Shown: piece by piece, positions 2,417 through 13,128 of the stretch
Layout: every line of letters begins with the position of its first letter
Numbering within the stretch: position 1 is the stretch's first letter
NCBI GenBank assembly: GCA_963932905.1
Contig: CAWVRN010000002.1
Coordinates: forward strand, 256,001-320,000
Length of the DNA: 64,000 nucleotides
From: an uncultured Bdellovibrio sp.
GTDB taxonomy: Bacteria > Bdellovibrionota > Bdellovibrionia > Bdellovibrionales > Bdellovibrionaceae
Direction of reading: 5' to 3'
The notes under the pieces: generated by a model
The model's database searches: none
What the model was told of the DNA's origin: nothing
The model's input: the letters and a program-made list of their open reading frames with translations, nothing else
Position numbers and translations under genes: made by a program

Positions 2417-3538
2417 ATGACTGCCCAAGAAATTGAAAGAAAAACCGAGACGACTCCAAAGAAAATCAAATTGGTGATTAGTAACCTTCATATGGGTAAA
2501 GGTCGTTTTCTTGAAAACGGTGGGATGAATCCGTTAGAAGAGTTTTATTTCAATGAAAAGTTTGTTGAGTACATCAATTACTATTCCAGCGGTATTTACA
2601 AAGACTACGAGGTCGAATTAATTATAAACGGCGATTTCATTAATTTCCTGCAAGTGGATTACAAAGGCCACTTTCTTTCTGTATTGACGGAATCTGTGTC
2701 GCTTGAGCTGCTTAAAAAAGTAGTTAAAGGTCATAAGAATGTTTTTGATGCGCTGGCCTCGTTTGCGGCCAAAGAAAACAAACAGATAACGTATATCATT
2801 GGGAATCAAGATCAGGCGATGTTATGGCCTAGCTGTAAACTCTATCTAAATCAGGTGATAGGCTTTCCAGTCCGTTTTAAAAACATTATGCATTACTTTG
2901 ATGGTTTTCATATCGAACATGGGCATATGTATGATGCAATTAACCGAGTCGATCCTAAAAAGTTTTTTCTTAAAAAGAATTTGCCAGAACCCATATTGAA
3001 TCTACCTATTGGTAGCCATTTTTTTATTGAATTGGTGCTTAAAGTTAAAATGAAGTATCCGTTTATAGATAAAGTGCGTCCATTTAAAAAACTTGTGACC
3101 TGGACTATGTTCAACCATACGAAACTATTTATTTCATCAATTATTGCTACGATTAAATTTATTGTTTCTAACTTTTTCTTTAAGAATAATCCCAGGAAGA
3201 ACTTTTCATTAAAAACGCTATCGAAGATGCTGATTCAGAGCGCATTGTTTCCTGATTTATCGCAATCGGCGCGTCGTCTGTTGAACAATGATAGAATTCA
3301 TACGGTTATTTTTGGCCAATCCCAGGGCTATAAGTATCGCCAATGGGAAATGGACAAGGAGTTTTTCAATGTTGGAAATTGGACAGAGATAACTTCGCTC
3401 GATATTTCATCACTCGGCAAGGTTTCTAAGCTTACTTATGTTCTAATCGAATACCCAACAGACGAGTCACGACCAAGAGCCAGACTAAAAGAGTGGCGCG
3501 GTTATTATCGAATCGAAGAAGACGTCGTAATTAGTTAG
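2417..3538 (+). CDS. Calcineurin-like metallophosphoesterase fold protein with degenerate active site
   Basis: Motif positions VISNLH, NGDFIN, GNQD, EHGH, FGQSQ correspond to DxH, GDxxD, GNHD, HG, GHxH. Confidence 0.8.
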   Translation: MTAQEIERKTETTPKKIKLVISNLHMGKGRFLENGGMNPLEEFYFNEKFVEYINYYSSGIYKDYEVELIINGDFINFLQVDYKGHFLSVLTESVSLELLKKVVKGHKNVFDALASFAAKENKQITYIIGNQDQAMLWPSCKLYLNQVIGFPVRFKNIMHYFDGFHIEHGHMYDAINRVDPKKFFLKKNLPEPILNLPIGSHFFIELVLKVKMKYPFIDKVRPFKKLVTWTMFNHTKLFISSIIATIKFIVSNFFFKNNPRKNFSLKTLSKMLIQSALFPDLSQSARRLLNNDRIHTVIFGQSQGYKYRQWEMDKEFFNVGNWTEITSLDISSLGKVSKLTYVLIEYPTDESRPRARLKEWRGYYRIEEDVVIS

Positions 3539-3548
3539 CACCGACTAG

Positions 3549-3571
3549 CTGGGACTCATGGTCCCAGTTTT
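3549..3571 (+). terminator. Intrinsic terminator-like hairpin
   Basis: CTGGGAC-TCATG-GTCCCAG followed by TTTT. Confidence 0.55.
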
Positions 3572-3616
3572 CCAAAAATATTTGTAGCTTCTATATTTTA
3601 GGGATATTCTTTCTAT

Positions 3617-4534
3617 ATGTCAGGAAAAGACGATACAAACGAAAAAACGATGGTGGCATCGGATACCACCTTAAAAAAAGAATTACTTCGATCCGATAGT
3701 GCTCCTCCGATGCTTGTGGTTCTGATGGGACCGCCGGGATATCAAGGAAAACAGTGGGCGTTGACAGATGCGTTTGTAATTGGCCGTGCAATTGAATCTA
3801 ATGTATTTATCGACGATAAAAGTCTTTCACGATCGCATGCGCGCATCGATATCAAGGGTGACAAAGTTTACGTTGTCGATTTAGGTTCAACAAATAAGAC
3901 AATCGTGAACGGACAAATTCTTCCGCCCATGGTTTTGTGCGAATTAAAAAACAATGATCAAGTTAAAACGGGTAATGTTATTTTCAAGTTTCTAGAAACT
4001 GGAAATATTGAAGGCTTAACAACACAGATGTTGTTCGAAAAAGCGAACCGTGATGCTTTGACTGGCGCGTACTCGAAAGGGGCACTGCTTGAAAAAGGCC
4101 CTGAATCGATCAAGCGCTCTGAGGTTTTGAATGAAGCCCTAAGCGTAATTGTATTTGATATCGATTTTTTCAAGAAAATTAACGACAGCCACGGACATCC
4201 TTGTGGTGACTTCGTGCTAAAAGATATGGCTCGTGTTGTTTCAACAAAACTAATTCGTTCAAACGATTTTTTCGCACGTTATGGTGGTGAAGAATTCGTA
4301 CTGATTCTAAGCGGCACTCCAGACAAGGTAGCTGCAGAGATCGCAGAACGGATTCGTACAACGATCCAAAACCACGAGTTCAAATTCGATGGCAAGATAA
4401 TCCCAGTGACCGTTTCAGTTGGCGTCACCTCAAAACAACCCAACGATACTCAATGGCAATTCATCTTCGATCGCGTGGACAAAGCACTCTACACCTCAAA
4501 ACAAACAGGCCGAAATAAAGTCACCATCGGCTAA
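3617..4534 (+). CDS. dgcB: FHA-GGDEF diguanylate cyclase, Bdellovibrio DgcB type
   Basis: N-terminal tail with EKT motif, FHA motifs IGR/SRSH/GSTN, GGEEF signature, RSND I-site. Confidence 0.85.
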   Translation: MSGKDDTNEKTMVASDTTLKKELLRSDSAPPMLVVLMGPPGYQGKQWALTDAFVIGRAIESNVFIDDKSLSRSHARIDIKGDKVYVVDLGSTNKTIVNGQILPPMVLCELKNNDQVKTGNVIFKFLETGNIEGLTTQMLFEKANRDALTGAYSKGALLEKGPESIKRSEVLNEALSVIVFDIDFFKKINDSHGHPCGDFVLKDMARVVSTKLIRSNDFFARYGGEEFVLILSGTPDKVAAEIAERIRTTIQNHEFKFDGKIIPVTVSVGVTSKQPNDTQWQFIFDRVDKALYTSKQTGRNKVTIG

Positions 4535-4540
4535 AAGGTA

Positions 4541-4599
4541 CCTCCTAACATTCTGGAGCCCGCAGCGTTAAACGCGCTGGATACCAGAATAGTAGGGGG
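4541..4599. other. Long bulged hairpin after dgcB
   Basis: CCTCCTAACATTCTGG...CCAGAATAGTAGGGGG outer stem; CAGCG/CGCTG inner stem. Confidence 0.55.
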
Positions 4600-5088
4600 G
4601 CTCAAGTCGCATCTGTATATAGATAGAGCAATCACGAAAAGACGAAAACGTAAACGGTACCTCAAACGGCTACGCCCAAAGGTTTTCCGGTCCGTCCACC
4701 GTGCACCAGCGTTTCGCGCAGATGCATTTTGGCTCTGTCAAAATTTTTTGCAAAATTAGCTGCGCTCAAGATTTGCCATAAAAAATTCTTATCCCAAACT
4801 GTTCATCTCAAACCAATACAATCTGATTTCCAGTGTCTAGAGTTTATCCAAACTTATACTTATGATTCGGGGTCAATTTGACCTTTTCTCGTTGGCCTTT
4901 GCGTTGCTTAGTAGATAAGCAGAGCGCGGGTTTGAATAAGAGGGCTATTTCCCGCGATCGAGTGAGTAGGCGCAGGTTTCATGAGGTGAATGAAAAAGGC
5001 GGCTAACCACTAGAAAGTAAAAAGGAAAATTTTTTTACTGAAAAAAATAGAAAAAATTAACCTAATTACCAAGTCGAGGGTCTAAACA

Positions 5089-5703
5089 ATGGGAAAAGAT
5101 TTACTAATCTTAACTGACAATGAGCTTGTGCAGGAGATTAAGACAGGAAACCGGAAAGCCTTCTCTGAGATCGTAAAGAGGCACCAAAAATCGTTGCTAC
5201 GTATGTCGCTTCGATTTGTAAAGGATTTAGATATGGCAGAAGACGTAGTCCAAGAAAGCTTCATCAAAGCGTTTGAAAAGCTAAATGCTTTCGAAGGACG
5301 TTCTTCTTTCAAAAGCTGGTTGTTCCAAATCGCAGTAAACACGGCGAAGAACAAACTGCGTGAACGTAGACGAGCAACGACGGATATTGATTCCGTACAG
5401 CTGGCGGTGGGAGCTGTGGCAGAATCATCGCTGGTACACTCGGCACTGTCACAAGAAATACAAGAAGAGATTGATAAGTTACCAACTAAACAACGAACCG
5501 CTTTGATCTTACGAGTATACGAAGATTTAAGCTTTAAGGAGATCGCAGATATTATGGAATGCCCATACGACACAGCGAAAGCTAATTACAGACATGCGTT
5601 GATGAAGTTAAAAGATAGTTTCGAACAAAAATCAGATATGAGTGTATCAGAATCATTTGGTGGTTTTTACTCTGAAGTCGCGCAATACGTGGAGGTTGAA
5701 TAA
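5089..5703 (+). CDS. ECF (RpoE-like) RNA polymerase sigma factor
   Basis: Region 2 AEDVVQESFIKAF..FKSWLFQIAVN and region 4 LSFKEIADIMEC. Confidence 0.92.
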   Translation: MGKDLLILTDNELVQEIKTGNRKAFSEIVKRHQKSLLRMSLRFVKDLDMAEDVVQESFIKAFEKLNAFEGRSSFKSWLFQIAVNTAKNKLRERRRATTDIDSVQLAVGAVAESSLVHSALSQEIQEEIDKLPTKQRTALILRVYEDLSFKEIADIMECPYDTAKANYRHALMKLKDSFEQKSDMSVSESFGGFYSEVAQYVEVE

Positions 5704-5704
5704 T

Positions 5705-6175
5705 ATGAACCCAAGAACTTTACCTCCAGATTTAAAACCGACGGAAAGAATGTTGAAACGACTTGAGGCCGCTGAGCCCGAACCGCAGTTGCCAGAGTCA
5801 GAAGATTATTACCAAATGTTGCATGATAAAATAATGGCGCAGGTGGAAACAAAGGAAATTAAACCGCCGCCTCCGCCGATCAGAAAAACTCAAGCTTTGT
5901 TAAAGCGTCACTGGCGCAACGGATTGTATCTAGTGACGATGAGTGCATTAGCCGCTGTTATCAGCGTGAAAACAGTAGGGAATATTGATACTCAAGTTAA
6001 TCAAAATCATGCCGTAATAAAATTCCAGAATGAAGACCAATTAATAGGTCTATTGAAAGATGCGCCGGAAGTTTTGGACAACACAGTGTTGTCCTCATAT
6101 AACTCTCAAGACTTAATGAGTGATGATCTATATTCAAATATAGACTTGACCAAAGATGTATTCGACTCGATGTAG
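5705..6175 (+). CDS. Putative membrane anti-sigma factor
   Basis: Starts 1 bp after the sigma gene stop; single hydrophobic segment GLYLVTMSALAAVISV. Confidence 0.6.
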   Translation: MNPRTLPPDLKPTERMLKRLEAAEPEPQLPESEDYYQMLHDKIMAQVETKEIKPPPPPIRKTQALLKRHWRNGLYLVTMSALAAVISVKTVGNIDTQVNQNHAVIKFQNEDQLIGLLKDAPEVLDNTVLSSYNSQDLMSDDLYSNIDLTKDVFDSM

Positions 6176-6205
6176 ATTGCTTATATAAATTAACAAACTA
6201 AAAAT

Positions 6206-6242
6206 AGTAATAAGCCCTGAAGTACTTTCGGGGCTTATTACT
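6206..6242. terminator. Strong hairpin overlapping the RBS region of the next gene
   Basis: AGTAATAAGCCC...GGGCTTATTACT, perfect 12-bp stem ending 2 nt before ATG 6245. Confidence 0.65.
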
Positions 6243-6244
6243 TT

Positions 6245-6715
6245 ATGACATACACTAAAACTATTCTTGTTCTATTTTTCCTGAGTTTTTCTGCACTAGC
6301 AGAGGTCGATCGACAGGTTAAAAAATTCGAAGACTTGTTTATTTGGAAAATTTCAGATGAATTGAAACTGACACAAAAAGAAGAAACGATCGTTGCCGAA
6401 ATTGTCAAAGACACTAATAAAAAGAAACAACAGTCGAACGCGGACCTTGAGGCTTTATATAAAAAGCTAAACGAAGAAACGACGGAGTCAGGAAAAAGGA
6501 CGGCCTTTAACAAAATCAGAGCCCTTCATAAAGCGCAGCTGAATATTACTTTAGAAGAATTAGATCGCTTAAACAAAGGTGTAGGATTAAAGCGCCTAGG
6601 TCAGTACTTAGAAGTAAAACGAGATCTTTCAGAGAAAATCAAAAACGTTTGGTCACAAACGGAAAAAAAAGGCGACAAAGTGTTGCCGCCACCCAAAGTT
6701 ATCGAAGAGAAATAG
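6245..6715 (+). CDS. Secreted helical protein, Spy/CpxP-like
   Basis: Signal peptide (ALA), ELKLTQKE motif, all-helical; third gene of the ECF locus. Confidence 0.55.
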   Translation: MTYTKTILVLFFLSFSALAEVDRQVKKFEDLFIWKISDELKLTQKEETIVAEIVKDTNKKKQQSNADLEALYKKLNEETTESGKRTAFNKIRALHKAQLNITLEELDRLNKGVGLKRLGQYLEVKRDLSEKIKNVWSQTEKKGDKVLPPPKVIEEK

Positions 6716-6801
6716 AATTTCCAGGCAGTCAGCCCAGGCATCGGGCAGCCAGACATCTATAAGTATGGACTTAGATTTGATCTGACACTAGTTGAAGTAA
6801 T

Positions 6802-6906
6802 GGCACTTCTAGAAACGAGAGGCGAGGTTTGGAGCTTCGCCGTTCTTTCCTAGGAAGCGCCACAAAAAGCTAAGTGGTGCATGACCAAGTAGCGTATAGA
6901 AGTATT
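6802..6906 (+). repeat. 105-bp inverted repeat, left copy
   Basis: Reverse complement matches 9067-9171 at 104/105 positions. Confidence 0.95.
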
Positions 6907-7039
6907 TGTTTTTGGACCGGATTTTGAATTTGAAAATATAGTGTGAGTTTACGCCAATTGAGCTGGCTCTCTGCAATTTAAAATTGAGACTCAGTTAACA
7001 ACTGAAAAGCAATTTTCGGCTGTATCAAAAGGAGACATT

Positions 7040-8503
7040 ATGTTTGGTAACAAAACTACAATTACCTACGTGATAGTGCTGTTCAGCTTAAACATATTTT
7101 TTTTTGAAAATTCTTTTGCGCGAACCTCCCGAGAAGTGGTTAATGATAAATTTGAAAACGTTGGACTCATTCACAATCGCGGAAAAAATGTATGCACTGG
7201 AACAATCATAAAACATGGAGTTATTTTAACTGCAAAACATTGTTTTGGATCCCGTGAAGTTGGAGAACTTGGCGCAAGTCATCTTTCTGTCTCATTTATC
7301 TCTGCGAGATACCCACTAACAAAAGCTTTCTTAATTAATGGAAATGACATTAAAAGAATTGTTCCCGATACCGGAAACAATGATATAGCCTACATGCTCT
7401 ATGAACCCAAGGCTACTGAAGAAAAAATAGATTTAGTCGTTAGTCAGATTCAGCTTTCTGTTCCAAGTAAAGGAATGCCAGCCTTGATCATCGGCTATCC
7501 AACTCAAACCAATAACCCCGAACATTTATCAAAAATTATTTCAAGAAATTGCTCTTTTGACGGAGTTTCTTCTGAATACACCCAGATGGTTCTATCAAAT
7601 CAATATCACGGCAGACTCTACCAAACTTCCTGTGCCGGTTTTTATGGAAACTCAGGAGGACCAGTCATTATTCGTGACAATTTAAATCGTCTCAAGCTTA
7701 TTGGCGTCGTTGCACATACTTTTTCGGTTGATTCATTCGGCCAGATTCTCGAAAAGAGAATTGAAACAGATCCCTTCGGTCAATACATCGCCGATGCAAA
7801 TGTGTCTTTGCTTTCTGATGCAAAATCACTTTCTAATGTTTTATCCCTCGACATCACGAAAATTCATAACAACGCACTACTGAGTGATGAATTGACTCAA
7901 TTAGGCCCTCTCAGAGAATACAGATCATTTGATTTAGATTCGGATGCTTTTTCATTCTTTTATCCTCAGTTAAAAAAACCTGCATTAGATGAGTCTTTTG
8001 AAACCCAATCTGTTGAAAAAATCTTTCGACGGCGAAGCGAGTACGGTGATGCGAATTTAAACTGTTCCTCACAGTTTAACAGAGTTAAAGTTGCATTTGA
8101 TAACATTATTAAGAAGAACAAGCTGGAATCCAAATTCTCTGACGAAAATTTTTACGTAGCTTTGTCTTGCAACGGCCTGGGACCAGACGCCAACTATAGC
8201 TTTGGAGTTTTATTTCTAACTGGAGAAATCGTAAATCTTATGGATACCGACGGAAAATTAACTTGCTTGATTTCACACGAGTTGAGCCATCGTCTACTGA
8301 AACATGATCGTATTCGAGTTGGGCAAGCCCAGCAAGAGCTAGATGCGGACGCTCTGGCTACAATTTTAACGGTTCGCAGTGGCTATCGCAAACAAGACTG
8401 CCGTGATTTTGTTGGCGAGACTTCAGTTTTTGATGCTCACTTAGACGGGTATCCATCAAGCTTTGAAAGGCTGCTAAATATTAATAGGATGATTTTTCCT
8501 TAG
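7040..8503 (+). CDS. Secreted trypsin-like (S1) serine protease fused to an M48-like zinc metallopeptidase domain
   Basis: Signal peptide; LTAKHC, NDIA, GNSGGP triad motifs; C-terminal HELSH...ELDADA zinc motifs; AAGGAG SD. Confidence 0.85.
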   Translation: MFGNKTTITYVIVLFSLNIFFFENSFARTSREVVNDKFENVGLIHNRGKNVCTGTIIKHGVILTAKHCFGSREVGELGASHLSVSFISARYPLTKAFLINGNDIKRIVPDTGNNDIAYMLYEPKATEEKIDLVVSQIQLSVPSKGMPALIIGYPTQTNNPEHLSKIISRNCSFDGVSSEYTQMVLSNQYHGRLYQTSCAGFYGNSGGPVIIRDNLNRLKLIGVVAHTFSVDSFGQILEKRIETDPFGQYIADANVSLLSDAKSLSNVLSLDITKIHNNALLSDELTQLGPLREYRSFDLDSDAFSFFYPQLKKPALDESFETQSVEKIFRRRSEYGDANLNCSSQFNRVKVAFDNIIKKNKLESKFSDENFYVALSCNGLGPDANYSFGVLFLTGEIVNLMDTDGKLTCLISHELSHRLLKHDRIRVGQAQQELDADALATILTVRSGYRKQDCRDFVGETSVFDAHLDGYPSSFERLLNINRMIFP

Positions 8504-8542
8504 CTTAAACCCCTGGCTATTTTCCAGAGTCGCTTTCGCTAC

Positions 8543-8686
8543 CTGAGCTTTTATGACCAGACGATGCAGGAATAGTTCCAACGTTTAAGCCAATTAGTGC
8601 TATTGAAGATTGGCCAATATTTGCATGAGGCCTGGCTCCACATATCAATAAGATCTTTCCGCGAAAGTCTGGTAACGAAAGCTCAG
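8543..8686. other. Long-range inverted repeat / structured element between convergent genes
   Basis: 8543-8562 CTGAGCTTTTATGACCAGAC vs reverse complement of 8667-8686 CTGAGCTTTCGTTACCAGAC (17/20). Confidence 0.6.
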
Positions 8687-8722
8687 TCGACGACTACAAC
8701 TAAGCATTCAAAACTTAGGGTT

Positions 8723-9025
8723 TTAGGGGCACTGAACAGCATAAAGCTTTTGCGGATTTTCGTTTAGAGGAAGGCGCAAAGAATTACCAACCTTGTATTG
8801 ATCTGAAAAAGGATATTTCTCGCTTAAGATGATCTCGGCACCAAGACTACCTTTTGCAGGGTTAATTATTTTGTAGGTAACACCCATTTCCTCGTCTTTT
8901 ACGCAGCCACCAATTTTAAAGATAGTCTCAGCATTAGTTCCTACTGTTTGCTGAATGTAGTGGTTCAAAGTGAAATAGGTAACAGCGACGAGAACAATCA
9001 ATCCGATTATGATTTTTTTCAGCAT
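8723..9025 (-). CDS. Small membrane-anchored hypothetical protein
   Basis: MLKKIIIGLIVLVAVTYF N-terminal anchor, two Cys; start may instead be 9043. Confidence 0.7.
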   Translation of the reverse strand: MLKKIIIGLIVLVAVTYFTLNHYIQQTVGTNAETIFKIGGCVKDEEMGVTYKIINPAKGSLGAEIILSEKYPFSDQYKVGNSLRLPLNENPQKLYAVQCP

Positions 9026-9066
9026 GTCTAAATGTATAATCAAGATTTAAATCTGTCCAGTAATCC

Positions 9067-9171
9067 AATACTTTTATACGCTACTTGGTCATGCACCACT
9101 TAGCTTTTTGTGGCGCTTCCTAGGAAAGAACGGCGAAGCTCCAAACCTCGCCTCTCGTTTCTAGAAGTGCC
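9067..9171 (-). repeat. 105-bp inverted repeat, right copy
   Basis: See 6802-6906; single mismatch at 9074. Confidence 0.95.
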
Positions 9172-9245
9172 CTATTCTTAGACGCAGTTACGGGAACTAA
9201 TGAAACTTAATGCCCATTATTTCTGGCTGTCTGATGAAACAGAAA

Positions 9246-9299
9246 CCTATTGTCGGTAGTGTCGGATCGAATTTAAATTTCTGCACTACTTACGATAGG
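9246..9299. terminator. Bulged hairpin immediately downstream of the L,D-transpeptidase
   Basis: CCTATTGT/ACGATAGG and GTAGTG/CACTAC stems. Confidence 0.45.
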
Positions 9300-9301
9300 C
9301 A

Positions 9302-10885
9302 CTACTTAAGAAGTCCTTGTGCTAACAATTTCTTATAAAGCGCGCTATTTAATCCGTAATAGTCATCAAAGAACTGAATTTTATTTCCTGATTCCGCTAC
9401 CGTGAGGCTCACGATGTATATCGTTAACGGTTTGCTTAAACGAATTCCTGTGTCTTTTTCTATTTTCTGTCCTGGCTTTGCAACCGTCGCATCGATCTTT
9501 GCTCGTGTCCAAGTCGTACCCTTTAGAAGGTATTCGGCGAAATCCAGTGGTTTTTCTAAACGTACGCAACCAGAGCTTAATAGACGGTAGTTATTCTTAA
9601 ACAGATGACGATCGCCCGTATCATGCAAATAAATCGAATATCTATTTGTCATTGGGAACTTAACTACGCCCAAAGCATTGTCATAGCTTGGTTGCTGCAC
9701 GATTTGAAAATCGATGTTGTTGCGACTGACATTCGCCCAATCGATACTAGCGGGATCAACTTCCTGATCTGTCTTTAAATTGATAATTTTATAACCGTGT
9801 TGTTTTAGGTAGCCTGGATTTTTCTTCAAGATAGGAAGCTTATCTTTAAAGAAGATATTCATCGTCGCGGTCCACGTTGGATTCAAAATAACCGATTGGA
9901 CTTTGTCTTTCATTAACGGAGTTCTGCGGCTAGTTTGGCCACCGATAGCTTTAAACTGCATGATATAATCATTAGAGTTAATATCAGCGTCTTGCACATA
10001 AAACATTTGATTCGCTATATTGGCAATCGCATGTCTTGATTCAAGGACATCAGACATCCAGCGAACTTTTTCAAGGTTCAATTCAGTTTCGCGGACGCGA
10101 CTGCGTATTTCTGAATTGATCAAGCGCCATGTTTTTGAATCTTTACTTAAGCCTTTTTCAAATGGAACAGACAGATCCAATTGAATATTTTTTAAAACAG
10201 CATCAAATTCAGAGTCATACAGTGGGCTTTCATTAGAAATTCCGTACCCAAGCAAATTCAGCTTGGCCTTAATCGCCGCTACGGATGAATGAGATTGGCC
10301 AAATAGTATTGTATTGGTCGGTTTTTCAACAGTTACCCAAAGATTTCTATCTTCTATGTCGCTCAGGCGAGCGAGAACTTTTCTTAAGCCAGAATAAAAT
10401 TTATTTTTTGGAGCCACTTGATTGTACAAGTTTGCGAATGTCGCTGCAGAAACCGTCGTTAGTAAATTCCATTGAGTGAATGCTTTTGGTTCGTACTTAA
10501 CATCGTCATTGATTTTTCGAGGATCAATTCTACCACCGACTGTGTGAATGATTGATTTTAAAAGATTCTCAGCGACGAATAATTCAGTTTTTAAATCTGT
10601 TGGGCCATTTTGTTTAACAAGTTCAGTTATGTTCTGAAATTGGTAATCACCGGCGCTTAGGCCATGCGATTTAATAGCTGTTCGAATCGCCTCTAGGTCG
10701 CCCAAAGAAATGGCCCACTGTCCGTTGCGTGCAAAGATCGGTTCGAAATTTCTATTTTGATAAGTTTTTTTCAAATAGGTCGGCGCCGTTGGTGTTGTGG
10801 CGAAATAATTATTTAATTCTACGGCGGTCTGTGCGAATACGAAAGAACTTAATGCCGTGATGGCGATAAAAAGGCGTACTAACAT
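9302..10885 (-). CDS. L,D-transpeptidase, YcbB/LdtD family
   Basis: Signal peptide, scaffold and PG-binding region, NPTW, NALGVVKF, IYLHDT, SSGCVRL. Confidence 0.9.
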   Translation of the reverse strand: MLVRLFIAITALSSFVFAQTAVELNNYFATTPTAPTYLKKTYQNRNFEPIFARNGQWAISLGDLEAIRTAIKSHGLSAGDYQFQNITELVKQNGPTDLKTELFVAENLLKSIIHTVGGRIDPRKINDDVKYEPKAFTQWNLLTTVSAATFANLYNQVAPKNKFYSGLRKVLARLSDIEDRNLWVTVEKPTNTILFGQSHSSVAAIKAKLNLLGYGISNESPLYDSEFDAVLKNIQLDLSVPFEKGLSKDSKTWRLINSEIRSRVRETELNLEKVRWMSDVLESRHAIANIANQMFYVQDADINSNDYIMQFKAIGGQTSRRTPLMKDKVQSVILNPTWTATMNIFFKDKLPILKKNPGYLKQHGYKIINLKTDQEVDPASIDWANVSRNNIDFQIVQQPSYDNALGVVKFPMTNRYSIYLHDTGDRHLFKNNYRLLSSGCVRLEKPLDFAEYLLKGTTWTRAKIDATVAKPGQKIEKDTGIRLSKPLTIYIVSLTVAESGNKIQFFDDYYGLNSALYKKLLAQGLLK

Positions 10886-10887
10886 AC

Positions 10888-11175
10888 CTATTCCGCCTTC
10901 AAGACGTTAAGTTTGTTGTCCGTCGTAATCTTGATAATAGTCTTTTGACTTTGGCTTTTTGAAAGTACGGAAAGAACCGCTTCAAAATTTGGAGCTTTGT
11001 TATCTAAATACAAAACTTGAGACGCATTTTTTAAAACGATGATTTTTCCATCGTCGTCTTCTTTGATTTTTAGAACAGTATCCGTAACAAGCGATGCTAA
11101 GTTATTAGCAAGCGCATCTGAAATGCCGAAGAAGAAGATAATCAACATCGAAATGGCAAATAAAAAATATTTCAT
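10888..11175 (-). CDS. Small secreted hypothetical protein
   Basis: Signal peptide; 2 bp gap to the LDT gene. Confidence 0.7.
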   Translation of the reverse strand: MKYFLFAISMLIIFFFGISDALANNLASLVTDTVLKIKEDDDGKIIVLKNASQVLYLDNKAPNFEAVLSVLSKSQSQKTIIKITTDNKLNVLKAE

Positions 11176-11250
11176 AGTGACCCCAATTTGGAGTCACATA
11201 TAGCGCGAACTTTAAATTAATTGTATTACGGAATCACGGGTTGGAAAAAA

Positions 11251-13128
11251 TTACTTAAGGATAATTAGTTTGCGAATCACACATTTACGGATATCCCCAA
11301 GCAATTTAGTCATTTCTGGGCTTTCGAATTCTTCCTGTAACACCCTTGGTTTTAATACTGTGATCACGTCATGAATTTGAATGGCCTTCGACTTTTGAGT
11401 TACCTTTCGGTCAAAGGCAATCCAAGGCGATTTAAACCCGCAGCTCAGCTTATTTGTGCCTTGGCTAGAGGCATCTTTGAACGAAATGATATATTCAGAA
11501 ACCCTTGGGTAACTAAGTCCCAGGTCAGTGAATCTTTTATCCACTCGATCAGCGATTTGCGATAGGGCCTGGTTTTCCCATAAAAGAAACCCTACACCCT
11601 GATTGGATTCATAGAAGGCATTCATTTCTTTGAATTCGTAGCTGAATTCAAGGTCGCGTGTGATCCGCGACATCAACGAAAATGGTGTGAATTTTACATC
11701 CGTGACTGTTTTCACATTGCTTGCTGTCCATTCAAGTAAACGGAATTGAAGGGAATCCAAAGACGACCGCAGTTGATCTCCGGTCCATTCCGTCGCGGCA
11801 ACTCCTGACAAATTCAGTTTAGTTTTGACGTGGACATACGGTTTTTTTACGTCGGCGTATTCAACTTGAATGACAGTGCGATTCTTTTTGTAGTCTGTAG
11901 GAGGAATGTCTTTTTCGCGCGGATTTTCAGGGTCTAAAAGGACGGCTACGCGACCGGAAATATCAGGCAGTGGTTCTTTAGTGAAAACCATGCTATTCGT
12001 TGCATCTAGCCAGCGGGGCTTGCCTTGAATTTCAACGTACGTGATGGCGTGATTTTGAACTTTTGTGCTTGGTAATTTTGGATTTTCAAACTGCATGTTA
12101 TCGCCGCGATAGACCCAAGCGACATAACTTTTGTAGCCCAGTTTTCTAAGTATGGCGGCAAGTGATGCTGAATAGTCTTTGCAATCGCCGTAACCGCTGC
12201 GAGCAATTTCAGCTAGTGGGCGAGGTATCATCGCGCCTTTTACACTGCGCCAGTCACCCAAATATCGAATGTGAGTTTGCAGGCGATCAATAATGAGTTC
12301 CATACGGTCCTCATCGCTTTTCAGTTTTTTTGCATCTTGATAAATCTTCTCGTGCATTTCGGGTAATGGTTCATTCAAAACAAGTTCATGGCTGGTCGTG
12401 ATAGACTTCATCATTTCCTTCGACCACGTTTTTTCGGACGATATTTCAATATGTGGGACAAGTCGTCGAGTTAAATAGGAATCTTTTTCTTCCACTGGGT
12501 TAATGTAAATTGGCTTTTTCTGACTGACATTAATATAGAATTTGCCCTTTTCTGTTTTGGCTTCTACGGCCAAGGAATCTATCTTGTCGCTGATGCTGTA
12601 AAATATCGGCATTTCGCTTTCGATGTATAGATTTTGCTTAATCGAATTCTCGCGCCAACCAAAATATTCAATTGTTCCAAAATAGTTATCAACCGACAGA
12701 GTGTGGGTTTCCATGTTCATTTTAAAATACAGTACTGATCCGACTTGAACGTTAGGAAAGGCTATAGAAACTTGGTTGTCGTTATCGAAGCCGTCTTTGC
12801 TGGACGCCAGGGGCTTATCTTCAATGGAATTGCTTTCGACTTTAGAAATGGAATCCCCATTTTTGGTATACGCTTCGATGCTAGTGATTTTTGATAAATA
12901 TGGTGGATAGGTAAATTTGTAGAAACCAAATTCGCGTCGGCCGGTTTCATTTAGAATTTCAACTTCAAATTCGGAAACACTTTTGTAATGGCCGCTCTTT
13001 TTAACTTGATAGTATTGATTCACTTGAAGAAATTTATGACTGGCTTCTTCGGGTCGCTGTAGCCGGGCTTTTGCCGAAGGTGAGAAAATAAATATCAGTA
13101 ATAGGGTAAGAGCAATCAAATGTTTCAT
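11251..13128 (-). CDS. DUF3857 + transglutaminase-like domain protein
   Basis: Signal peptide; FPNVQVGSVL (DUF3857); GDCKD, NHAI, WLDAT Cys-His-Asp triad. Confidence 0.85.
   Translation of the reverse strand: MKHLIALTLLLIFIFSPSAKARLQRPEEASHKFLQVNQYYQVKKSGHYKSVSEFEVEILNETGRREFGFYKFTYPPYLSKITSIEAYTKNGDSISKVESNSIEDKPLASSKDGFDNDNQVSIAFPNVQVGSVLYFKMNMETHTLSVDNYFGTIEYFGWRENSIKQNLYIESEMPIFYSISDKIDSLAVEAKTEKGKFYINVSQKKPIYINPVEEKDSYLTRRLVPHIEISSEKTWSKEMMKSITTSHELVLNEPLPEMHEKIYQDAKKLKSDEDRMELIIDRLQTHIRYLGDWRSVKGAMIPRPLAEIARSGYGDCKDYSASLAAILRKLGYKSYVAWVYRGDNMQFENPKLPSTKVQNHAITYVEIQGKPRWLDATNSMVFTKEPLPDISGRVAVLLDPENPREKDIPPTDYKKNRTVIQVEYADVKKPYVHVKTKLNLSGVAATEWTGDQLRSSLDSLQFRLLEWTASNVKTVTDVKFTPFSLMSRITRDLEFSYEFKEMNAFYESNQGVGFLLWENQALSQIADRVDKRFTDLGLSYPRVSEYIISFKDASSQGTNKLSCGFKSPWIAFDRKVTQKSKAIQIHDVITVLKPRVLQEEFESPEMTKLLGDIRKCVIRKLIILK

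Follow-up and report, generated by a model that had tools for sequence, protein, structure and literature searches.

The 64,000-nucleotide (nt) stretch of DNA analysed here, referred to as the window, comes from an uncultured Bdellovibrio sp. (assembly GCA_963932905.1, contig CAWVRN010000002.1, positions 256,001 to 320,000) and harbours, between two conserved convergent genes, a unit of 2,524 bp (6762–9285) that carries a protease gene and a gene for a small membrane protein, encodes no transposase and is bounded by terminal inverted repeats (TIRs) like those of an insertion sequence (IS) of the IS481 family. Its anatomy, its membership of a family of related units, its link to an IS and its presence/absence polymorphism are direct observations. 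The reading favoured here, to which a probability of roughly two in three is given, is that the 2.5-kb segment is a transposase-less unit of the ‘mobile insertion cassette’ (MIC) type with long IS481-type ends, and that the conserved core found within each of these ends is an expression module. A sequence-only reading of the same DNA had proposed a non-autonomous mobile cassette, an invertible segment or a dispersed leader/promoter element, and the first of these proposals appears essentially right, as it is supported by the IS481-type TIRs, the lack of a transposase and a syntenic site that is empty in close relatives.

Boundaries of the unit and its IS481-type ends

Direct alignment of positions 6802–6906 with the reverse complement of 9067–9171 returns identity at 104 of 105 positions, the sole mismatch falling at position 6899, where one arm reads TATAGA and the other TATAAA, just as the sequence-only reading had described. 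The same reading had taken these 105-bp arms for the boundaries of the cassette, which proved to be wrong. Outward of the arms a similarity containing indels continues as far as 6762 on the left and 9285 on the right, placing the outer limits of the unit 40 nt and 114 nt, respectively, beyond the arms, which are therefore the inner core of two ~190-nt ‘long ends’ that face inward and whose tips form the termini of the unit, TIR to TIR. Each long end starts with a 27-bp TIR, continues through a subterminal TIR-like repeat, itself a direct repeat of the inner half of the TIR, and a -10-like box recognised by eye (TGnAATAAT), and then leads into the core. The two ends of the window unit differ from one another in that the second TIR-like repeat has been deleted from the left end whilst the right end has gained a duplication of ~44 nt. 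Similarity between the two halves is weaker on either side of the cores, with 18 of 32 positions identical inward of the arms (6907–6938 against 9035–9066) and an ungapped identity of 3/10 just outward. Because an island of 104/105 identity is set within such flanks, and because the indels of the two ends differ, the most plausible account of the near-identity of the cores is that gene conversion has homogenised the two inverted copies. A third copy of the core, at C7:59385 in the same genome, is 96% identical to that of the window.

As far as contigs show, the inverted repeat is no artefact of assembly, a possibility that had been raised beforehand. Public runs from three studies cover the arms, with a 3,411-nt contig of run X1 spanning 6971–10381 across the right arm with five differences, and contigs of runs from the two other studies covering both arms piecewise; run X1 is possibly the source sample of the window assembly itself. 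Among the contigs of four runs no inversion or deletion joints were found, although contigs drop rare variants and a rare inversion could escape them. These data bear upon the idea that the 2.1-kb interior is an invertible segment, flipped as a phase-variation switch by crossover between the inverted repeats, an idea that is very improbable. A near-perfect inverted repeat of 105 bp with its copies 2.1 kb apart would suit homologous inversion, and 36 bp of the flanking spacer stand in inverted orientation when compared with the genus relative G097. However, apart from the absence of alternative joints, no recombinase was detected by Pfam among the 10 annotated open reading frames (ORFs) of 2417–13128, and the repeat family also occurs in single copy and in tandem arrays. 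Moreover, inversion would change little, since each gene would come to sit behind an identical core.

In most copies similarity reaches ~75 nt upstream of the core. At another site of the genome, C7:98631, comparison with relatives shows that the strain-specific segment ends beyond its gene, where the first ~27 nt of this upstream stretch recur twice in inverted form, the outer copy abutting the conserved flank. A profile of the motif, TGTAGAAGTTTAGACTTGATCTGACA, identifies 23 sites in the genome at E < 0.06 (nhmmer). Inverted pairs 1–4 kb apart are represented by the window pair (C2:262764/265286), by two pairs on contig C3 and by one each on C7, C12 and C38. Both of the C3 pairs are copies of a 1,228-bp IS481-family element with a single intact ORF of 348 amino acids (aa), which lie at C3:27886–29117 and C3:190768–191999 and share 85% nucleotide and 92% amino acid identity. 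The encoded transposase contains the Pfam domains HTH_29, rve and rve_3 and satisfies the NCBIfam model NF033577 ‘IS481 family transposase’ with 279.3 bits against a cutoff of 224. These two are the only copies of the transposase in the genome, and related elements are found in the relatives G060 (85–88% nucleotide identity) and G008 (~72%).

The window TIRs agree with the IS termini at 18–21 of 27 positions overall, against a random expectation of ~26%, whereas beyond the 27-bp terminus the unit, which has no transposase of its own, and the IS share nothing. As this terminal repeat is common to both, mobilisation in trans is conceivable, and an IS481-family transposase could in principle move such units. 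The target of IS481 is NCTAGN, and four of 16 ends read YTAG-N-TGTAG, a resemblance that is only a lead. No autonomous IS carrying a long end was found, in that an IS481 transposase gene follows none of the 22 cores identified in this and other genomes and is present at none of six further loci of relatives with a TIR and module. One core (locus L048) has a fragment of a Mutator-family transposase gene downstream. Beside the core on C20 there is a 404-aa ORF (C20:39832–41046) that is convergent with the long end and has a weak match to rve (25.7 bits in Pfam, below the cutoff, and 31 bits with NF033577); it may be a distant DDE transposase belonging to another element.

Empty sites, cargo genes and related units

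Eight genes flanking the unit keep their order in four relatives of the genus, which allows the interval between the stop codons of the two adjoining genes, p156 and the L,D-transpeptidase (LDT) gene, to be followed from genome to genome. In this genome it measures 2,586 bp and is occupied by the cassette, whereas the site is empty in G097, with ~90 bp between the same stop codons, and in G008, with ~16 bp. In G060 and G077 the interval of 2.5 kb and 3.7 kb, respectively, is filled by one and the same unrelated gene pair, DUF1588/1592 and DUF1552, with no core. DNA homology with G097 ends at window position 6714, in the p156 stop codon, and resumes exactly at 9302, the LDT stop codon. The cassette would have been acquired as accessory DNA at a point where two conserved convergent genes meet with their 3' ends.

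Other members of the family behave in a comparable manner. The unit on C38, 1,053 bp from TIR to TIR, is missing from G097 and G085, where its flanks lie 23 bp apart, and the element at C7:98631 together with its gene has 38 bp in its place in G097, its right boundary being an inverted TIR. Both C7:59385 and C7:33311 lie within replaced segments, homology of the C14 locus with five relatives begins at query position 2032–2041 with the tip of the TIR at 2034, and a segment on C9 is 3,769 bp long in this genome and 1,161 bp long in G097. The genome of G097 has members of its own, including a minimal unit of ~760 bp in which inverted TIRs surround a 23S_rRNA_IVP gene, and an array of three head-to-tail units (locus L091, G097:C78:5500–10500, at ~2438–5000), each of which combines a core variant and a gene with what is left of a TIR or module; the three share one orientation. 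This array is located downstream of what appear by eye to be thrS and infC, and contains a second core subfamily (…GGAAAGTTCAGG…GACC…) that is also present in the genome under study, at C9:60407 and C12:54641.

A rather improbable explanation of these patterns is that the two long ends represent separate insertions of miniature inverted-repeat transposable elements (MITEs) that came to flank genes of different origin, and that the whole has the mere appearance of a composite transposon and never moved as a unit. It would account for the solo long ends that follow convergent genes at their 3' ends on C4 and C14, for the many copies of TIR and module in relatives, and for the absence of a target-site duplication bracketing the whole unit, whilst the differing indels, a deletion on the left and the 44-nt duplication on the right, suggest separate histories. 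An element of this kind should have an inverted TIR at its inner end as well, yet the score for such a repeat exceeds the 95th percentile of shuffles (1.0) at the expected place in just two of 15 ends, on C9 (3.9) and C14 (1.8). Furthermore, none of the empty sites found is short of ~200 bp alone; wherever a locus was examined, relatives lack the long end together with the gene beside it.

The cargo of the window unit consists of two convergent genes with a copy of the repeat upstream of each in the same relative orientation, an arrangement that had been described earlier and that the ORFs and Pfam bear out. The ORF list and Pfam also uphold the claim that no transposase or integrase is encoded within the unit, since the only sizeable ORFs are the protease and the 100-aa gene. 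The former (7040–8503) matches the Pfam families Trypsin (E 7.8e-15) and Trypsin_2, with a weak match to Peptidase_M48 (21.8 bits against a cutoff of 20.3), and the latter, a minus-strand ORF (8723–9025/9043), encodes 100–106 aa depending on the choice of start. The protease gene is present in none of the nine genus relatives, and one of 181 other genomes of the family has a match, confined to the trypsin half at 31% identity. A set of 5.8 billion proteins holds just three homologs, of which one is a diverged full-length fusion. A protein 98% identical to it is encoded on a contig of 2,235 nt. A search for RNA runs of this organism found none, and soil metatranscriptome contigs that are 95–99% alike map only to 7052–8477; none of them covers the core, and such contigs reveal neither starts nor strands.

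Across the family the cargo includes, in addition to the protease fusion, a fatty-acid desaturase, a toxin-antitoxin-like pair (Gp49/HTH), a 23S_rRNA_IVP protein, a weakly trypsin-like protein and several signal-peptide proteins without a family. In the cassette at C12:50631–51911 the desaturase gene is split into ORFs of 150 and 143 aa, whereas G085 has an intact desaturase of 358 aa behind a full core, and hence the gene on C12 appears to be disrupted here. From C49:14062 to the end of the contig, a long end whose interior is of the GGCC type gives way to a simple repeat, (GATGA)n. In G077 (locus L040, G077:C156) a core is interrupted by an insertion of ~35 nt that matches the TIR profile (E 1.3e-05), such that the end of one element may have inserted into the core of another. 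A 1.45-kb islet in G089 (locus L038, G089:C7) is bordered at query 340–426 by a stretch of ~85 nt that is 91–96% identical across most genomes of that genus and is possibly a tRNA gene at which insertions recur. Finally, locus L087 (C4:172800–176800) contains at ~641–780 a separate repeat of ~140 nt, unrelated to the TIR/core family, for which G097 has numerous matches (of 16 rows at E <= 1e-8, 14 fall on this stretch or close to it) and which G077 matches too.

The features of the window locus are collected in Table 1.

Table 1. Features of the cassette locus, with positions in the window.
Feature	Position	Strand	Evidence
p156, conserved flanking gene, last of an extracytoplasmic function (ECF) sigma factor triad	6245..6715	+	Stop TAG at 6713-6715; tblastn in 4 genus relatives, 64-90% aa identity, synteny kept
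Spacer, p156 stop to left TIR	6716..6761	.	6722-6757 matches the G097 spacer inverted (BLASTN plus/minus, 29/36)
Left TIR, tip degenerate (AGTAT for TGTAG)	6762..6788	+	nhmmer genome-wide E 0.0057; 18-20/27 against four IS termini
Subterminal module remnant, second TIR-like repeat deleted, -10-like box TTGAAGTAAT at its end	6789..6801	+	Long-end alignment; promoter reading by eye
Left core copy (left arm)	6802..6906	+	104/105 against right copy; R1 model 129 bits
Poorly conserved continuation, sigma-70-like TGGACC-18-TATAGT at 6913-6942	6907..6942	+	Promoter scan 9/12; 32% identity across lineages
Cargo gene 1, secreted trypsin-like protease with M48-like HEXXH domain, 487 aa	7040..8503	+	Pfam
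Cargo gene 2, small protein (100 aa counted from ATG 9025), N-terminus hydrophobic	8723..9025	-	ORF list; no Pfam family
Poorly conserved right continuation, sigma-70-like TGGACA-17-TACATT at 9059-9031	9031..9066	-	Promoter scan 9/12
Right core copy (right arm)	9067..9171	-	R1 model 127 bits
Right subterminal module: second TIR-like repeat, -10-like box, ~44-nt junction-duplicating insertion	9172..9258	-	Alignments
Right TIR, TGCAGAAATTTAAATTCGATCCGACAC	9259..9285	-	nhmmer genome-wide E 0.0021; 19-21/27 against IS termini
LDT (YkuD), conserved flanking gene, convergent with p156	9302..10885	-	Pfam YkuD; in 8/9 genus relatives

The hexamers at 9059–9031 would put a transcription start at or beside the ATG at 9025. 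As with the spacer piece at 6722–6757, a 7-mer beside the LDT stop codon also appears flipped in comparison with G097; the short spacer may have flipped along with the cassette or may be a partly palindromic bidirectional terminator. Further upstream, the window contains a gene for an FHA and GGDEF diguanylate cyclase (3617–4534) and the triad of ECF sigma factor, 177-aa ORF and 156-aa secreted-looking ORF (5089–6715), both conserved in four relatives. The adjacency of these genes to the cassette appears coincidental, because other copies of the core are not beside ECF genes.

The conserved core and its possible role

A profile search of the 4.55-Mb genome identifies the core, which is ~110–115 nt in length, in eight full copies (E <= 1.8e-27) besides partial matches, with two on C2, three on C7 and one each on C12, C20 and C38, and with identities of 63–99%. 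A covariance model built from these eight copies (R1) was used to search other genomes. It detects the core, with one to three copies in each, in nine of the other 120 genomes searched in the same family, five of them among the nine genomes of the same genus, in one of six genomes of another family of the class, and in none of 75 genomes across the remaining 11 families sampled. The core is an undescribed conserved motif that occurs in two families of the class. It had been suggested beforehand that the repeat might simply be a known IS end, or a repeat scattered without regard to accessory genes. The first half of this suggestion is close to what is found, in that the repeat belongs to a family of IS-type ends, whereas the second half does not hold, as the copies are not scattered independently of accessory genes.

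Conservation is unevenly spread along the long end. Across five independent lineages the mean pairwise identity is 0.78 in the 3' block of the core, 0.67 in the TIR, 0.63 in the 5' hairpin, 0.53 in the rest of the module and 0.32 in the stretch after the core. The 5' half of the core folds into a long hairpin, with a z score of -3.5 for the window copy, and both window copies are flagged as terminator-like on account of an inner stem and a nearly invariant GTTCTTTCC tract; in the left core the terminator-like inner hairpin lies at 6821–6841 and is followed by GTTCTTTCCT. On the basis of these features the core is probably a portable expression module, with a leader or attenuator hairpin in the sense of the gene and a conserved 3' block placed before the cargo gene, and would act on whatever gene follows it. 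The sequence-only reading had spoken of a dispersed leader/promoter element, of which the dispersal, the position upstream of diverse accessory genes and the constraint are upheld, whereas transcription from the element is putative.

Comparison with known RNAs and signals gave no assignment. There is no match in Rfam 15 at E <= 1 within 6000–10000, and at E <= 10 the region 6755–7045 yields three sub-threshold matches, all of which are outside the core. ARAGORN finds no tRNA within 6000–10000. RNAalifold predicts 16 pairs from the eight copies with no compensatory change, and nothing from a gappy alignment of 21 copies. Three candidate signals were examined by eye and rejected. A sigma-54 promoter at the invariant TGGCAC has its TTG 2 nt too close and no GC at -12. 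A conserved small ORF starting from ATGGCAC has in-frame stops within the first 11 codons in ~9 of 21 copies, and the right window copy has no ATG. The Bdellovibrio sigma-28 (FliA) attack-phase promoter is TTAAG-N16-CCGATA according to PMC3627812, and measured against that consensus the candidate in the 3' block, CTAAG ... GCGTATAA, has a spacer that is 2 nt too long.

Several observations weigh against the favoured reading, both as to mobility and as to the role of the core. The left TIR of the window has lost the conserved TGTAG tip, and hence this copy may no longer be mobile. No convincing target-site duplication is seen at the window unit when compared with the empty site of G097, in keeping with what the sequence-only reading had noted, or at the C38 unit, C7:98631, the minimal unit of G097 or the IS copies; a candidate direct repeat at C7:98631, ATTATTT, lies 146 nt outside the TIR. 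Transposition itself is therefore undemonstrated, and decay, recombination or an atypical mechanism are all possible. With regard to the core, nine of 22 copies score as terminators under strict criteria, compared with 21 of 1,100 shuffles. Covariation in the hairpin is marginal, the share of paired cells being 74.7%, as opposed to 73.2% in shuffles (8/500 as high), and the covariation score 0.160 against 0.146 (42/500 as high). Counted over the named helix pairs of 18 sequences, G.U cells number 77 and A.C cells 12, an excess that leans to a single-stranded structure in the sense of the gene and that is biased, since the structure was taken from a fold of the plus strand and many of the cells are inherited. 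Sigma-70-like hexamers follow the core in both window copies; a conserved sigma-70 promoter at this position was rejected, with six promoter-like sites against 6.2 expected in shuffles and a stretch that is 32% conserved. Moreover, 10 of the 14 core loci of relatives have no TIR at the expected upstream position, nine of them having none at E <= 1 and one having a TIR inside the core, and in G089 the core sits in the middle of its 1.45-kb islet and not at the edge. As the TIR is absent upstream in so many of the loci of relatives, the core is not simply part of an IS end.

This last point also favours a different explanation, possible but on the unlikely side, in which the core is primarily a cis-regulatory element of the host (an RNA leader, a small RNA or an operator) for accessory secreted-protein genes, its association with IS481-type ends is secondary, the ends having captured the core or the core having been seeded beside them, and the locus is no more than two independently regulated genes that happen to face one another. 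The case in the other family, where the core lies ~200 nt upstream of a signal-peptide gene, would fit such an element, as would the head-to-tail array in G097, a 3' block more conserved than the TIR, the excess of G.U over A.C and the onset of conservation, which by eye falls in most copies right after a -10-like nnnAAT box. Curation assigns to 18 of the 22 copies a plausible gene in the same orientation that starts within 400 nt. A mechanical count of ORFs gives 21/22, but its mirror control gives 13/22, and mechanical co-orientation is therefore weak evidence. Against a purely regulatory element there is the finding that seven of the eight cores in this genome have a TIR and module directly upstream, that the window unit has inverted TIRs and is missing as a block from relatives, that Rfam contains no match to the core, and that covariation is marginal. 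In addition, without mobility it would be difficult to account for a regulatory element of ~110 nt that keeps 60–80% identity before unrelated genes in different families. The mobile cassette with long IS481-type ends is the preferred reading.

It might be speculated, and the chances of this are low, that the core is a leader (as gene-sense RNA) or operator that plugs any gene behind it into a single host regulon, for example a programme of secreted hydrolases in a predator. The IS481-type ends would then spread tag and cargo together, building dispersed and tandem sets of co-regulated genes without the need for an integrase. On the preferred reading, the bacterium would acquire and reshuffle its accessory secreted proteins by means of small cassettes that lack a transposase, have IS481-type ends and are lodged in conserved neighbourhoods. 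The less ordinary part is the core, which nearly always stands before a gene and exceeds the transposon ends in conservation; should it control expression, it would constitute a mobile regulatory module and also provide a handle for finding strain-specific secreted proteins.

Comparison with known systems

Repeats of the Correia and ERIC (enterobacterial repetitive intergenic consensus) type are complete small palindromic units that are present in high copy and have promoter and hairpin activity. The core resembles them as a short dispersed element with a putative long transcript hairpin that lies upstream of genes and has possible promoter or terminator effects, but differs in being asymmetric, low in copy number (eight here, one to three in relatives) and tied to strain-specific cargo. 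Integron cassettes with their attC sites provide a second parallel, as a repeated structured site is associated with diverse accessory genes, mostly of unknown function and including toxin-antitoxin pairs, and tandem arrays are formed. Pfam finds no integrase here and no attC R''/R' core sites are apparent by eye, no formal attC model having been used. Unlike attC, which is 3' of its gene, the element is located 5' of the gene, and its copies are dispersed and often inverted. The IS481 family itself is represented by the IS on C3, with its single transposase ORF and inverted ends that start with TGT.

Composite structures formed by MITEs are known from Acinetobacter (PMC6382973), where class 1 integrons are flanked by a 439-bp MITE and a region of 76 kb by MITE-297, and where MITEs are noted to be able to carry outward-facing promoters. 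The window unit is like these composites in that two short transposase-less copies bracket the cargo and the parent IS is deduced from the similarity of the TIRs. It is unlike the MITEs described there (PMC6382973) in that an inner TIR is not convincing, and in that the cargo is a protease in an environmental predator-type bacterium as opposed to resistance genes on plasmids.

The best comparison is with the MICs of Xanthomonas (related to TnXax1) and Bacillus cereus, whose definition, as it is given in PMC4337579, the window unit fits, with inverted IS-type TIRs, no internal transposase and a presence/absence pattern with an empty site. No target-site duplication was found at the junctions of the window unit, whereas 5-bp examples are reported for some Xanthomonas MICs. 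The cassette mechanism itself is already known in Bacillus and Xanthomonas, whilst a search of the literature returned no description of such cassettes for this bacterial group or for the IS481 family. According to the discussion of that article, Bacillus MICs can carry an endopeptidase gene, and solo repeats and tandem clusters of units occur, both of which are likewise seen in the family described here. Unlike the MICs as presented there, the present units have repeats of the IS481-family type, each end is a conserved module of ~190 nt, and its structured core is better conserved than the TIR and is also found free of it.

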